A DNA stretch of 8,834 nt from a virus (lineage: Monodnaviria; Loebvirae; Hofneiviricota; Faserviricetes; Tubulavirales; Inoviridae): IMG/VR virus record IMGVR_UViG_2531839441_000001. One strand, 5' to 3'. This document shows positions 843-8,834 of the stretch, one piece after another; positions within the stretch are counted from its first letter, which is position 1, and each line of letters begins with the position of its first letter. The position numbers were made by a program, and so were the translations under genes. Under the pieces are notes generated by a model. That model ran no database searches, was not told the origin of the DNA, and saw only the letters and a program-made list of their open reading frames with translations.

Positions 843-894
843 AGTACACGCGCAGCCAACGCCAGGGGCATCCAGACTGGCGGAATATATCCAT

Positions 895-990
895 AGTGCG
901 CATTAGATATATGCCGTTATGTTGAATCGGGTGCGGCGAAAATGGCGAGCGCCGCGCCCGATTTACACATAACGCTCTTGTGCGCATTGT
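895..990. other. dif-like forked stem-loop A, candidate XerCD attP-type site
   Basis: AGTGCGCATTA (895-905; E. coli dif XerC arm is GGTGCGCATAA) + 11 nt + TTATGTTGAAT (917-927; dif XerD arm is TTATGTTAAAT). 14-bp GC-rich stem 925-938 pairs with 950-963 around an 11-nt loop (939-949); 7-bp stem GTTATGT (916-922) with ACATAAC (967-973); outer stem through the palindromic TGCGCA core (897-902 with 981-986); asymmetric internal loop of about 10 nt versus 5 nt. Confidence 0.5.
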
Positions 991-1356: not shown

Positions 1357-1722
1357 TTATGGCCTGTAATAGATATTTAAACTTTTAAATTCTTTGTATT
1401 GCTCCTTCGTTGGCGCATCTACTTTTATATTTTTCGTTGCCTTTACAACCATATTGCATAGCTCATAATCACCTTTTATATTTCGAATCCCGTTCATTTT
1501 TCCATCCATTTCTAAATTTATTTTGAATTCACATATTCTACCTTTGTATCGTTTTGTGTTTTCTTTTTCTATGTGCTTTTGTATTTCTTTTCTCACCTTC
1601 CCCAGATATTGGTCTTTTTTGCAGTTGTTATTATTGCATCTGTATGTTTCATAATTACTTTTTGCATTCGCGCTTAGTGTCACACCTATTAGCATCAATG
1701 CTATTTTCATTTTTTTCTTCAT
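1357..1722 (-). CDS. secreted TolA C-terminal domain (domain III)-like protein, 121 aa
   Basis: Minus-strand ORF with RBS GAGGG about 6 nt upstream of ATG. N-terminal signal peptide MKKKMKIALMLIGVTLSANA. Remainder (YLGKVRKEIQKHIEK...YKGRICEFKINLEMDGKMNGIRNIKGDYELCNMVVKATKNIKVDAPTKEQYKEFKSLNIYYRP) aligns by eye with the remembered E. coli TolA C-terminus (YAGQIKSAIESKF...YAGKTCTLRIKLAPDGMLLDIKPEGGDPALCQAALAAAKLAKIPKPPSQAVYEVFKNAPLDFKP), including both Cys and the terminal [FY]-[KR]-P. Lies in the AT-rich cassette. Confidence 0.65.
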   Translation of the reverse strand: MKKKMKIALMLIGVTLSANAKSNYETYRCNNNNCKKDQYLGKVRKEIQKHIEKENTKRYKGRICEFKINLEMDGKMNGIRNIKGDYELCNMVVKATKNIKVDAPTKEQYKEFKSLNIYYRP

Positions 1723-1784: not shown

Positions 1785-1973
1785 TTATTTTTTTTGTGTG
1801 ATTTCATTCTTTGAAATCATATCTTGCTTTGCATCGTTCAAATATTGGTCTATCAGATAATTTACAATCTCTGACCATTTTGTGACTTTTCCTGTTTTTG
1901 CTGTGATGTCTACAGCTGCTCGTTCTATTCTCAGGTATCTCTCGTTGCTTATACCAATACTTTTTCTGCTCAT
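1785..1973 (-). CDS. small DNA-binding regulator, ribbon-helix-helix-like (candidate phage repressor)
   Basis: 62-aa minus-strand ORF with RBS AGAGGGTG 4 nt before ATG. N-terminal beta-strand-like basic segment (RKSIGIS) followed by two predicted helices (NERYLRIERAAVDI; WSEIVNYLIDQYL), typical of Arc/CopG-type RHH proteins. Divergent from the replication gene, like rstR/rstA in CTXphi. Confidence 0.55.
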   Translation of the reverse strand: MSRKSIGISNERYLRIERAAVDITAKTGKVTKWSEIVNYLIDQYLNDAKQDMISKNEITQKK

Positions 1974-4110
<2,137 letters not shown>

Positions 4111-5219: not shown

Positions 5220-6254
5220 ATGCGGCTGTTATTTCTGCTTTTATTTCTTCCGTTCTTTTCATCTGCTGAATCATTCACAAGAACATTTGTGCCTTTTAAA
5301 TTAACTGAAGCTGATGAGGTCTGTATTTCCCGCCCGGCGCTGCAGGGGGTCACACTTTCCGGAGCGTTTCGCAGTGATAATACATGGTATGCCGTTCTGG
5401 ATGGCTGTATTTATAGGGCGACAGGTGTGATTGTTGGCAGTGAAACAGGTGATGTCGCCGCTGACTGGATCCCTGTGGCAGCTTATGAGCCTTCGGATGG
5501 TGATGGCGGGGACGGGGATAACAGCGGCGGCAACGGAGACAACAGTTCCGGTGATGATAATGATAACGCTGTATCCGGTCAGGTTTCTGCTGTCTATTTG
5601 CTTGAACTTGCGGATACACTGAGGAGACAGGAGTGTGATAATAATCCGCTGTTAATCTGTGGTTCGTTTTCAGGATATTATCCCCCGCGGAAAACTATGC
5701 CTTTATCTGAGTTGCGCGCTCACGCAAAATATTACTCCTGCACTCCCAACGGTTCCGGCTGGCAGAACCTTTATAACAGCACCTGTTATTTAAGGGAGGG
5801 TTATAAAATTGAGGACGGGAAAATTGTTCCTGACAACGGTAATGAGGAAGATAACAACGGTAGTGAAGATAATAATTCCGGCAGCGAGGGCGGTAATAAT
5901 TCCGGTGGTGGAAATACCGGGAGTGACGGCAATGATAATAACACCGGAAACGGGGATGACGGTCTTTCTGATGAGTGGGGAAGAAAAATATATTATCTGC
6001 TGAATGCCGGACTGCCTGCCATCGGAGACAAAATTGACAGCTTTCATAGCAGCTACATTGAACTTCAGAATAAAACCCTTGTTACCATGGATTATATGAC
6101 AGAAAGGCAGGTGAAATATTTACACAGCATTGATGAAAAATTTGGTGCACTGACAGAGCCGGATAAAAACTACTCTTCGTCTCAGGCGCAGTTTAACAGC
6201 ACCATGCAGGGGATTATTGAGAACGGTATAAGTTCAGTGGAGCAGGGCGTATAG
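5220..6254 (+). CDS. pIII-like adsorption/minor coat protein, 344 codons ending at an in-frame TAG
   Basis: RBS GAGG then ATG 5220; signal peptide MRLLFLLLFLPFFSSA. N1-like domain (DGCIYRATGVIVGSETGD...WIPVAAYEP; compare M13 pIII N1 EGCLWNATGVVVCTGDET...WVPIGLAIPE). Two Gly/Asp/Asn/Ser-rich linkers (about 5494-5568 and 5836-5965) flank a Cys-containing middle domain. Frame stops at TAG 6252-6254 inside the C-terminal domain. Confidence 0.85.
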   Translation: MRLLFLLLFLPFFSSAESFTRTFVPFKLTEADEVCISRPALQGVTLSGAFRSDNTWYAVLDGCIYRATGVIVGSETGDVAADWIPVAAYEPSDGDGGDGDNSGGNGDNSSGDDNDNAVSGQVSAVYLLELADTLRRQECDNNPLLICGSFSGYYPPRKTMPLSELRAHAKYYSCTPNGSGWQNLYNSTCYLREGYKIEDGKIVPDNGNEEDNNGSEDNNSGSEGGNNSGGGNTGSDGNDNNTGNGDDGLSDEWGRKIYYLLNAGLPAIGDKIDSFHSSYIELQNKTLVTMDYMTERQVKYLHSIDEKFGALTEPDKNYSSSQAQFNSTMQGIIENGISSVEQGV

Positions 6255-6914: not shown

Positions 6915-8171
6915 ATGGCTGTTTACTGGGTGACAGGAAAAATGCGCAACGGGAAGGGGCTGTTCTGCTCCATGGTGGCAAAACAGTTTTACCGTCGCGG
7001 ACACAGAATTGCGGCAAATTACCCGCTTGATACTGAAAAAATGGACCCGGCTTCATCGCATCCGGTGACCGTGCTTCCGGCCCGTCCTCGTCCTGAAGAT
7101 TTCTGGGCGCTGGGGCGTGGTTGTGATGAAAATGAGAAGGAGCGGTTTGGTGCGTTATTTCTGGATGAGGTCGGAACATGGCTTAACGGCACATCTTCCG
7201 GCCGGGAATACCTGGAATATTACAAATGGTTTGTACAGTCCGGGAAACTGGGCTGGGATGTTTATATTCAGGTGCAGGATGAATCCGCCGTTGACAGCAA
7301 AATATTTAAATCCACGGGTGAGCTGATTGTCCGCTGCCGTCGTCTTGATCGTATTCGTGTCCCGGTCGTGTCCGATATTCTGGAACTCTGCATGCCGGAT
7401 AAGTTTGGCGATACGGGCAGCCGGAAAGGGCTTCTGCCGCACCTGATTTCGGCAAAAATTTATATCGGTGTTCCCCGGGCGAATTCCCGTCCCAATGAAT
7501 CCCGCGTTTTTTATGCGCCGTCCTTTTACGGTATCCATCCGACGAACATGGTATTTGATGACGGAATGGAACTGCTCGGAACGGGTGAGCATCAGCGGGT
7601 CTGTGATATGCGCGCCATGTATTCCCTGTTGCCCGGCAGAACCCTCCGGCAGTTCCGGCGGCTGCGTGAGCGGCAGGAGAAAGGGGATTTGCAGACCTTC
7701 ACGGCAGAGGAACGAAAGGAGCAGCAACAGGCGCGCCGTAAAAAACTGTTGTCCGTTGTGGTGGGTGGCCTGTTTTTCTGGTTCTGGGGACGTCTTGTGC
7801 TGGATTTTTTCTCCGGCACACCTGATGAGCCGGCTGCAACGGTCATGCAGGCACCACCACAGGTAATCACCACTGAAAAAGCGCCGCCTGTACCACAGGT
7901 CGCATCTCCGGCAGAACTGCCGCTTTCCCGTGTCTGGCGGCTTTCCGGTCATATGCGTGACGGCAACAGGCAGGGGGTTTTTATTCTGCGCAGTAACAGC
8001 AACGTCACGCGGCTTGTGCGCAGTGAACTGCCGTATGAAGGGCTGCTTACTGTACTGGAACTGGATGGCGAACACATCACGTTTCACAGCGGGTCAGGCA
8101 GTGAACCTTCCCCGTCGCGTTCGTCCGGCAGCGGTGCCGGGGGGATGTCCGTTTCTCTCACCACACCATAG
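6915..8171 (+). CDS. pI / Zot-family phage assembly NTPase, 418 aa
   Basis: N-terminus MAVYWVTGKMRNGKGLFCSMV (M13 pI: MAVYFVTGKLGSGKTLVSV); LFLDEVGTWLNG (M13 LVLDECGTWFNT); KLGWDVYIQVQDESAVDSK...RCRRLDRIRVPVV (M13 KLGWDIIFLVQDLSIVDKQ...YCRRLDRITLPFV); one transmembrane segment LLSVVVGGLFFWFWGRLVLDFF, then a Pro- and Ser/Gly-rich periplasmic tail. Confidence 0.9.
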   Translation: MAVYWVTGKMRNGKGLFCSMVAKQFYRRGHRIAANYPLDTEKMDPASSHPVTVLPARPRPEDFWALGRGCDENEKERFGALFLDEVGTWLNGTSSGREYLEYYKWFVQSGKLGWDVYIQVQDESAVDSKIFKSTGELIVRCRRLDRIRVPVVSDILELCMPDKFGDTGSRKGLLPHLISAKIYIGVPRANSRPNESRVFYAPSFYGIHPTNMVFDDGMELLGTGEHQRVCDMRAMYSLLPGRTLRQFRRLRERQEKGDLQTFTAEERKEQQQARRKKLLSVVVGGLFFWFWGRLVLDFFSGTPDEPAATVMQAPPQVITTEKAPPVPQVASPAELPLSRVWRLSGHMRDGNRQGVFILRSNSNVTRLVRSELPYEGLLTVLELDGEHITFHSGSGSEPSPSRSSGSGAGGMSVSLTTP

Positions 8172-8180
8172 GGACAGAAT

Positions 8181-8834
<654 letters not shown>

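Follow-up and report, generated by a model that had tools for sequence, protein, structure and literature searches.

The 8,834-nucleotide stretch of DNA analysed here (IMG/VR record IMGVR_UViG_2531839441_000001, called the window below) consists from position ~895 of a filamentous (inovirus) prophage of Escherichia coli, of the dif-integrating type. All positions are those of the window unless a comparison locus is named. On the minus strand, this prophage carries a 121-aa open reading frame (ORF) whose product is almost certainly an exported orphan form of domain III of the cell envelope protein TolA (TolA-III). Filamentous phages and group A colicins enter the cell by gripping domain III of TolA. 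The chance that the ORF product acts as a periplasmic decoy, which would provide superinfection exclusion and colicin tolerance, is considered to be about even.

The exported TolA domain III protein

The ORF starts with ATG and is located at 1357-1722 with the stop codon counted in. A GAGGG Shine-Dalgarno sequence is found at 1730-1726, 4 nt 5' of the ATG. Three features were assigned, with the basis for each given in brackets.

1357-1722, minus strand: secreted TolA-III ORF (Pfam, NCBIfam, phmmer, AlphaFold2 and Foldseek)
1663-1722, minus strand: signal peptide, aa 1-20, MKKKMKIALMLIGVTLSANA (direct reading of the translation)
1372-1623, minus strand: TolA C-terminal domain, aa 34-117 (PF06519 and Foldseek); the β3 edge strand runs on to P121 (nt 1360)

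Direct reading of the signal peptide reveals a basic n-region (MKKKMK), a 10-residue h-region (IALMLIGVTL) and then SANA/K, and a lipobox cysteine is absent. A Sec-type export signal with a signal peptidase I (SPase I) cut after A-N-A is predicted.

The Pfam family PF06519 matched the ORF at E 4.5e-12 (46.5 bits, cut-off 25), with aa 34-117 aligned to 84 profile positions, 11-94 of 96. Of the NCBIfam TolA models (the PRK09510 and TIGR02794 equivalogs), the ORF covers the last ~90 positions only (298-386 of 387), and its scores are under the equivalog cut-offs (61.9 versus 213 and 43.8 versus 59.45). A phmmer search against the PDB matched E. coli TolA-III (1S62, 3QDP, 2X9A_B and 1TOL) at E ~6e-6, and the alignment pairs both cysteines and the C-terminal F-K-x-x-x-[LI]-x-[FY]-[KR]-P motif with TolA-III. 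The two cysteines, C64 and C89, are the equivalents of C363 and C388 in E. coli TolA and are invariant in alignments A3 and A4.

A first AlphaFold2 model, obtained from the single sequence, was too poor, with a predicted local distance difference test (pLDDT) score of 59, and was replaced by a model built on a 36-sequence alignment. In the latter, the block-mean pLDDT is 84-95 for aa 40-120 and mostly >90, and values <50 are seen across aa 1-27. The model displays the three-stranded α/β fold of TolA-III. Its top Foldseek match in the PDB was the TolA-III structure 3QDP at E 8.5e-7, with a template modelling (TM) score of 0.85 and a root-mean-square deviation of 1.5 Å over 86 columns. The further matches, 3QDR, 2X9A_B, 1TOL and 4G7X_B, are all TolA-III, and the C-terminal domains of TonB matched much more weakly. 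An additional cysteine pair, C29-NNNN-C34 (aa 29-34, window 1621-1638), which TolA does not have, precedes the TolA-III domain in a region modelled with low confidence.

The N1 domain of the filamentous phage protein pIII (G3p), colicin N (ColN) and TolB all dock on β3 (A415-K420) and the first helix of TolA-III via backbone β-strand addition (PMC4339652, PMC8928145). Side chains of TolA β3 are minor for this binding, which is abolished by prolines alone (PMC4339652). In the ORF, β3 is L115-N-I-Y-Y-R120-P121, which is proline-free inside, has many residues that favour β-structure and is modelled as a strand at 114-119; its TolA counterpart is A415-P-L-D-F-K420-P421. The helix-1 motif Y39-x-G41-x-V43-R44-x-x-I47 corresponds to Y340, G342, I344, K345 and I348 in TolA. 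As judged from this alignment and the model, the known docking surface of TolA-III is retained in outline.

The ORF product thus resembles E. coli TolA-III in the fold, the disulfide pair, the helix-1 pattern Y-x-G-x-[IV]-[KR]-x-x-I and a β3 strand ending in [KR]-P. However, it is only ~28% identical to E. coli TolA-III, has its own cleavable signal peptide and the extra CxxxxC motif, and is encoded by a prophage outside tol-pal. Because domains I and II are absent, it cannot be energised by TolQR. Assignment as a TolA orthologue was rejected, as the protein has neither the membrane anchor nor the helical domain II, fails both equivalog cut-offs and is encoded outside the tol-pal operon. In every context seen, the gene is flanked by inovirus genes and attP-like sites, and not by tol-pal. 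The RefSeq name given to the protein in relatives, 'cell envelope integrity TolA C-terminal domain-containing protein' (WP_001687335.1), is accurate.

The sequence-only reading of this DNA had described the minus-strand ORF as a signal peptide followed by a domain aligning by eye with TolA-III, including both cysteines and the C-terminal motif, and lacking the anchor and domain II of TolA. Each part of that description holds: the n- and h-regions and A-N-A can be read directly, PF06519, phmmer and AlphaFold2/Foldseek agree on the domain, and in a protein of 121 aa the NCBIfam match is limited to the end of the model. The same reading had proposed a profile search and structure prediction as a check, and both match TolA-III (PF06519 at E 4.5e-12; 3QDP with TM 0.85).

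Orphan TolA domain III proteins on other elements

When 1.84 billion representatives were searched exhaustively with HMMER, only 39 matches at E <= 1e-3 were obtained. Of those that are full-length, the best five are other short proteins (110-124 aa, 29-38% identity) and not true TolAs, and four of these five bear a signal peptide or lipobox. Among the 26 matches retrieved, approximately seven have SPase I signals and 12 have lipoboxes, and the remainder are fragments or have no recognisable signal. Most of the 'TolA' database entries of 100-230 aa were set aside, as they proved to be pieces of genuine tolA genes or calls of such genes with a frameshift. With the ORF alone as query, a word-indexed protein search matched nothing beyond the cluster of the ORF itself, and tblastn against INPHARED phages gave nothing at E <= 1e-3, with one lambdoid match at E 3e-3. 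The ORF also matches phrog_5772, a family of unknown function, at E 1.2e-11 (aa 25-117 aligned to profile positions 29-124 of 128), and the orphans described below, whether lambdoid, on plasmids or from another inovirus, match the same family.

Two divergent soluble homologues (29-30% identity) are encoded next to, and convergently with, a gene for an M13-pIV-type secretin (phrog_1012, E 1e-85 and 4e-36). One of them, P0160 (117 aa), is from a metagenome contig that ends within the secretin gene, and its inovirus context is therefore putative. The other, P0161 (120 aa), is from E. coli and belongs to a different, unrelated inovirus, which lies between dmsA and dmsB together with an IS110-family transposase gene (L018, 11012-22102). 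The gene products of this element are Rep, a G5P-like protein, a putative pIII of 500 aa, pVI, Zot, a homologue of the F-pilin acetylase TraX and the secretin, with the TolA-III protein encoded last, at the end of the prophage. Its TolA-III gene is AT-rich (29.5% versus 46.7% GC), and the element has 47 matching places in 8 genomes, with up to 11 per genome.

A 142-aa lipoprotein with a TolA-III domain (lipobox IIGC) is encoded between Q and the lysis genes of the lambdoid phage mEp460_ev081 (L004, 3812-4240). DNA for the mEp460-type lipoprotein is present in 888 of 5426 complete E. coli genomes, where it is labelled 'tolA: cell envelope integrity protein TolA'. This label is a systematic mis-annotation.

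On plasmids, tblastn gave 317 records, including two that are chromosome-sized Proteus records (hence ~315 plasmids); Klebsiella accounts for 287 of the records, and 238 are conjugative. In MOBH conjugative plasmids, the gene for a soluble TolA-III adjoins or overlaps the end of psiA. In other plasmid contexts it is paired with a thioredoxin-fold gene, or lies beside genes for a HlyD/ABC bacteriocin-type exporter. In a 6.2-kb ColRNAI plasmid, it adjoins a gene for an Exc2-family lipoprotein, and further genes of this plasmid specify a colicin lysis protein and a bacteriocin-like protein with a lysozyme domain. The plasmid loci are as follows.

Plasmid orphan loci: L005, 1518-2441; L007, 4100-5396; L019, 4220-5249; L006, 4992-5351; L020, 4890-5249

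Two further proteins, P0079 and P0163, are 233-aa lipoproteins in which a TonB_C-like domain (PF03544) is fused to TolA-III.

Organisation of the prophage

The core inovirus set was matched by Pfam and PHROG families, namely Rep, a single-stranded DNA-binding protein, pVIII, pIII, pVI, pI (Zot) and the pIV secretin. The gene order on the plus strand (GPA-type replication initiator, G5P-like protein, pVIII, pIII, pVI, pI/Zot and the start of pIV) is colinear with that in intact relatives. The features of the prophage outside the TolA-III ORF are listed below.

895-989 and 1041-1135: two attP-like hairpins with inverted dif-like XerC/XerD half-sites (by reading and repeat search)
~895-910: left prophage junction (similarity to relatives begins at 895)
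1330-2127: AT-rich swappable module (GC content and comparison with relatives)
1785-1973, minus strand: 62-aa ORF, putative regulator/repressor, upstream of the TolA-III ORF in the leftward unit (phrog_2503, function unknown, E 5.5e-29)
1974-2127: divergent control region of 154 bp (TTGCA(C/T) repeats)
2128-4110, plus strand: replication initiator of the Phage_GPA type (PF05840, E 6e-48; phrog_91, E 4.5e-123)
5220-6254, plus strand: pIII with Ff-type N1, truncated by CAG>TAG at 6252-6254 (Pfam, PDB)
6915-8171, plus strand: pI / Zot-type assembly ATPase (Pfam Zot, E 8.8e-10; phrog_1675)
8181-8474, plus strand: 5' part of the pIV secretin gene (phrog_1012, phrog_36604), with IS100 from ~8475

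The sequence-only reading had also pointed to a TolA-binding type of N1 in the pIII encoded from 5220, and this was substantiated. The N-terminus of pIII matches the Pfam family Phage_Coat_A (N1 domain) at E 4.6e-8 and the N1 domains of the g3p of fd and IF1 in the PDB (3DGS, E 2.3e-6; 2X9A_A, E 2.5e-5). 2X9A_A is the g3p chain that was crystallised together with TolA-III. In M13, the N1 strand that includes V44 pairs with β3 of TolA (PMC4339652). The equivalent strand in the pIII of the window is ATGVIVG, where M13 has ATGVVVC. As its N1, the pairing strand included, is homologous to that of fd and IF1, the phage lineage probably uses TolA as co-receptor. In UTAK-18 (L001), a relative that also carries the TolA-III gene, pIII differs almost solely in N1 and is identical in the rest (L001 6723-8051 versus window 5220-5500); an example is ATGNVIVGGDSGTVSANW in UTAK-18 versus ATGVIVGSETGDVAADW in the window. 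This pattern suggests that recombination or diversifying selection is acting on N1.

The TolA-III ORF lies in the module at 1330-2127, which is the sole differing segment among otherwise 99%-identical relatives and has a GC content of 31.7%, as compared with 49.6% in the remaining phage. The TolA-III ORF and the 62-aa ORF form a leftward unit that is divergent from the replication gene and opposite in strand to the structural operon. Atypical GC content, a strand opposite to that of the virion operon and a swapped position are the marks of a moron, and all three are seen for the TolA-III gene. The control region between the 62-aa ORF and the replication gene includes operator-like TTGCA(C/T) repeats at 2020, 2036, 2072, 2080 and 2088, such that five of the 14 TTGCA sequences in the window are found within 154 bp.

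In ESC818, the same slot (L002, 9465-10449) is filled with a homologous 60-aa ORF, in which the N-terminal half has diverged, and the intergenic repeats are GTTAAC where the window has TTGCA. The cargo at this place is a gene for a 188-aa DUF2726 protein with a hydrophobic N-terminal segment and a weak match to REase_MTES_1575. The L002 slot looks like a heteroimmune module swap with other cargo.

The layout is like that of rstR and ig-2 in CTXphi, where a small variable regulator gene is divergent from the replication gene in near-identical dif-integrating inoviruses that form tandem arrays. This resemblance to the CTXphi rstR region supports the view that the 62-aa ORF encodes the phage regulator and that the TolA-III gene is co-transcribed cargo. 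However, no similarity to RstR could be detected in the 62-aa regulator, and, unlike in CTXphi, a cargo gene (TolA-III or DUF2726) is added to the module. The position of the 62-aa ORF, the TTGCA repeats, and the swap of regulator and repeats in relatives all suggest that its product may be a repressor. A ribbon-helix-helix (RHH) protein can tentatively be read from the residue pattern. The TolA-III gene had earlier been placed beside a repressor-like gene; the leftward unit with a small ORF is borne out, whereas the 62-aa ORF had no match in Pfam, NCBIfam or PDB and no repressor family could be assigned to it.

In UTAK-18 (L001, 3947-25201), the phage forms an 11,181-bp tandem unit with two different replication/regulator modules, one with a helix-turn-helix (HTH) protein and an RstA-like Rep and the other with the RHH-like protein, TolA-III and the GPA-type Rep. 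This unit may represent a composite phage, or else a phage accompanied by an RS1-like satellite.

Positions 1-894 of the window belong to a CPZ-55-like prophage with homologues of yffO/yffP, which itself lies in the eut operon. An uninterrupted copy of this region was used for comparison (window 843-935, L003 6893-6925) and revealed that the inovirus was inserted at a pseudo-dif site, AGTGCGCATTAGAT/TCATTACGTTAAAA, with the crossover inside the central region. The insertion point in the CPZ-55-like prophage is a secondary site of integration, different from dif. The phage is also found next to hipA, near dif on the E. coli map, and these copies often form tandem arrays. A search of the window at <=3 mismatches did not find the consensus E. 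coli dif site, and the dif-like halves present there are diverged. The hairpins at 895-989 and 1041-1135 are 95-nt units that are 72% alike, each with a GC-rich stem, and resemble the folded single-stranded attP of the CTXphi type.

The copy of the prophage in the window is defective owing to a stop codon in the pIII gene and IS100 in the pIV gene, though the TolA-III ORF is intact. The nonsense mutation (CAG>TAG) is at codon 345 of 441, and the truncated pIII is without its C-terminal anchor and assembly domain; in intact relatives (UTAK-18 and L002) the gene reaches 6545 and encodes 441-442 aa. The pIV gene is cut after ~98 codons by IS100 (IS21 family). Matches to IS100/IstB begin at 8469-8475, similarity to L002 ends at 8474, and an ORF for the IstB ATPase is present at 8541-8834 on the minus strand. 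The same arrangement of IS100 and pIV occurs in draft genomes L008, L009, L013 and L014.

The decoy proposal and its alternatives

In the proposed mechanism, Sec export would deliver the soluble TolA-III into the periplasm, where it would compete for ligands that dock on the β3 edge strand and first helix of host TolA-III. For filamentous phages that depend on TolA, the ligand captured would be the N1 domain of the incoming pIII; for group A colicins, it would be the translocation domain. Capture ahead of the membrane-anchored, energised TolA would reduce both superinfection of the lysogen and its killing by colicins. At a high dose, the product would also compete for TolB, which would loosen the outer membrane. 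The proposal supposes that the gene is expressed in the lysogen, that the product binds these ligands and that a protective phenotype follows.

TolA-III with a ribose-binding-protein signal fused to it is said to have caused colicin tolerance and periplasmic leakage in the work of Levengood-Freyermuth et al. in 1993 and of Wan and Baneyx in 1998, and the tolerance in the former reportedly extended to colicins E1, E2, E3 and A. The ORF product has the same architecture of a signal peptide and TolA-III as this engineered protein. However, the engineered TolAIII is an overexpressed fragment of the host protein, whereas the ORF is a natural and highly diverged phage gene. Periplasmic TolAIII delivered via a signal sequence perturbs the envelope, and the cells leak (PMC6195910). 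When periplasmic N1 or pIII occupies TolA, the outcome is tolerance to colicin A and a 4-log fall in phage uptake (PMC10424213). TolA-III binds ColN with a dissociation constant of 1 µM and TolB with one of 40 µM (PMC4339652). Given this gap in affinity, a decoy could trap invaders before it upsets Tol-Pal, without a full tol phenotype.

As the set of orphan TolA-III proteins on phages and plasmids is far wider than this phage, a general role in envelope protection is likelier than a role for its own pIII only. The association with conjugative plasmids would fit a decoy, since pili expose their hosts to TolA-dependent male-specific phages, and the association with bacteriocin plasmids would fit also.

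Several observations weigh against a decoy. The promoter and terminator scan of the window predicted no sigma-70-like promoter on the minus strand and gave no other useful signal there. The TolA-III gene is rare: only four complete E. coli genomes carry it, out of 72 that have related sequence and out of 5426 in total. Identity to E. coli TolA-III is only 28%, and the surface side chains are largely different. The N1 variant found alongside TolA-III in UTAK-18 indicates that a decoy is not tied to a single N1 type, and thus there is no tight match to pIII. No relative was found in scans of IMG/VR with the ORF or with an alignment of the inovirus-type orphans, BFVD includes no viral protein with the TolA-III fold, and no family among the PADLOC-DB 2.0 defence models matched the ORF at E <= 0.01. 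Ff phages exclude superinfection via pIII itself, and a second exclusion mechanism is therefore not obviously needed. A periplasmic TolA-III could also be costly through leakiness of the outer membrane.

Alternatively, the protein may serve the resident phage, by binding the periplasm-facing N1 of its pIII, sparing host TolA and averting, during chronic virion production, Tol-Pal defects such as the leakiness and detergent sensitivity for which pIII expression is known. Periplasmic N1 or full-length pIII is known to sequester TolA and alter detergent and colicin phenotypes (PMC10424213), and the N1 of this phage is of the TolA-binding type. The finding of a soluble TolA-III gene beside pIV in one other inovirus prophage, and beside a pIV-type secretin gene on a metagenome contig, also favours such a role. 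However, the ORF is on the opposite strand to pIII, in the regulator-side unit, and hence would not be co-induced with the virion genes. Moreover, the lambdoid and plasmid homologues have no pIII to neutralise, and the ORF is still intact where pIII and pIV are already broken. This explanation is considered unlikely.

Less probable again is a dominant-negative effect on Tol-Pal, in which the product competes for TolB and possibly others, and the loosened outer membrane, with more vesiculation or leakage from the periplasm, aids extrusion or alters the host surface. TolB does share the β3 site (PMC4339652, PMC8928145), and engineered periplasmic TolAIII has been used to make E. coli leak periplasmic proteins (PMC6195910). 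Nevertheless, the weak affinity between TolA and TolB (40 µM) would demand high expression, envelope damage is a cost to the lysogen, and inoviruses possess their own secretin channel. The association with bacteriocin and conjugative plasmids is explained no better by this effect than by protection. The lowest probability is given to a functionless passenger. Under this reading, a horizontally acquired piece of AT-rich DNA, which may be silenced, is carried along in the variable module while the prophage decays. The defective state of the copy in the window, the rarity of the gene (four of 5426 E. coli genomes), the failure to predict a promoter and the strongly AT-rich composition, from which the gene is probably foreign, would all be consistent with a passenger. 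Against it stand an intact ORF with a good Shine-Dalgarno sequence, a signal peptide, both cysteines and a confidently folded domain, and the divergent intact exported homologues on many unrelated elements, which argue for selection.

As a decoy, the ORF product would target the same interaction between N1 and TolA-III as exclusion by Ff pIII, with the same expected block to uptake and colicin tolerance. The two are mirrored, in that Ff blocks the co-receptor with a phage ligand, whereas the ORF would supply a surplus co-receptor domain to soak up the ligand. Cor of lambdoid phages, Llp of T5 and PfsE of Pf4 are likewise exported proteins of small size by which a prophage guards its lysogen at the envelope, but these bind and inactivate a receptor or pilus component, whereas the ORF product copies a receptor domain. 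The ORF product is also similar in architecture to the phrog_5772 orphans (the 142-aa protein of mEp460_ev081 and the 119-145-aa proteins of Klebsiella and Serratia plasmids), which are also stand-alone exported TolA-III proteins of mobile elements. The ORF product differs from those in being soluble (SPase I) and not lipid-anchored, in its far greater divergence (21-30% identity to them) and in its location in an inovirus regulator module.

The literature searched included no functional study of phage- or plasmid-encoded TolA-III, with annotation-level remarks only (PMC2833190, PMC11125564), such as the passing mention of a 'putative colicin uptake protein TolA' in a Cronobacter prophage (PMC2833190). 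It also included no superinfection-exclusion system that works by receptor-domain mimicry. The annotation of the domain and the orphan family in PHROGs were known already, and what would be new is envelope protection by copying a co-receptor domain rather than masking it.

If the decoy proposal is correct, this phage protects its host through receptor mimicry and not through receptor masking. It is further suggested, though only tentatively, that orphan TolA-III proteins are a widespread class of periplasmic co-receptor decoys, soluble on inoviruses, lipid-anchored on lambdoid prophages (DNA in ~16% of complete E. coli genomes) and of either form on ~315 plasmids, most of which are conjugative and from Klebsiella. 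Such a class would let mobile elements shield their hosts from Tol-dependent invaders, namely filamentous phages, pilus-specific ones included, and group A colicins or klebicins, and would have been hidden by the 'tolA' mis-annotation. Orphan genes of this kind, commonly labelled just 'tolA', are found in approximately one sixth of the complete genomes of E. coli and on hundreds of plasmids from clinical Klebsiella. Should they influence import that depends on Tol, or the integrity of the outer membrane, this would bear on phage and bacteriocin therapy, on plasmid ecology through defence against male-specific phages, and on the permeability of the envelope in pathogens.

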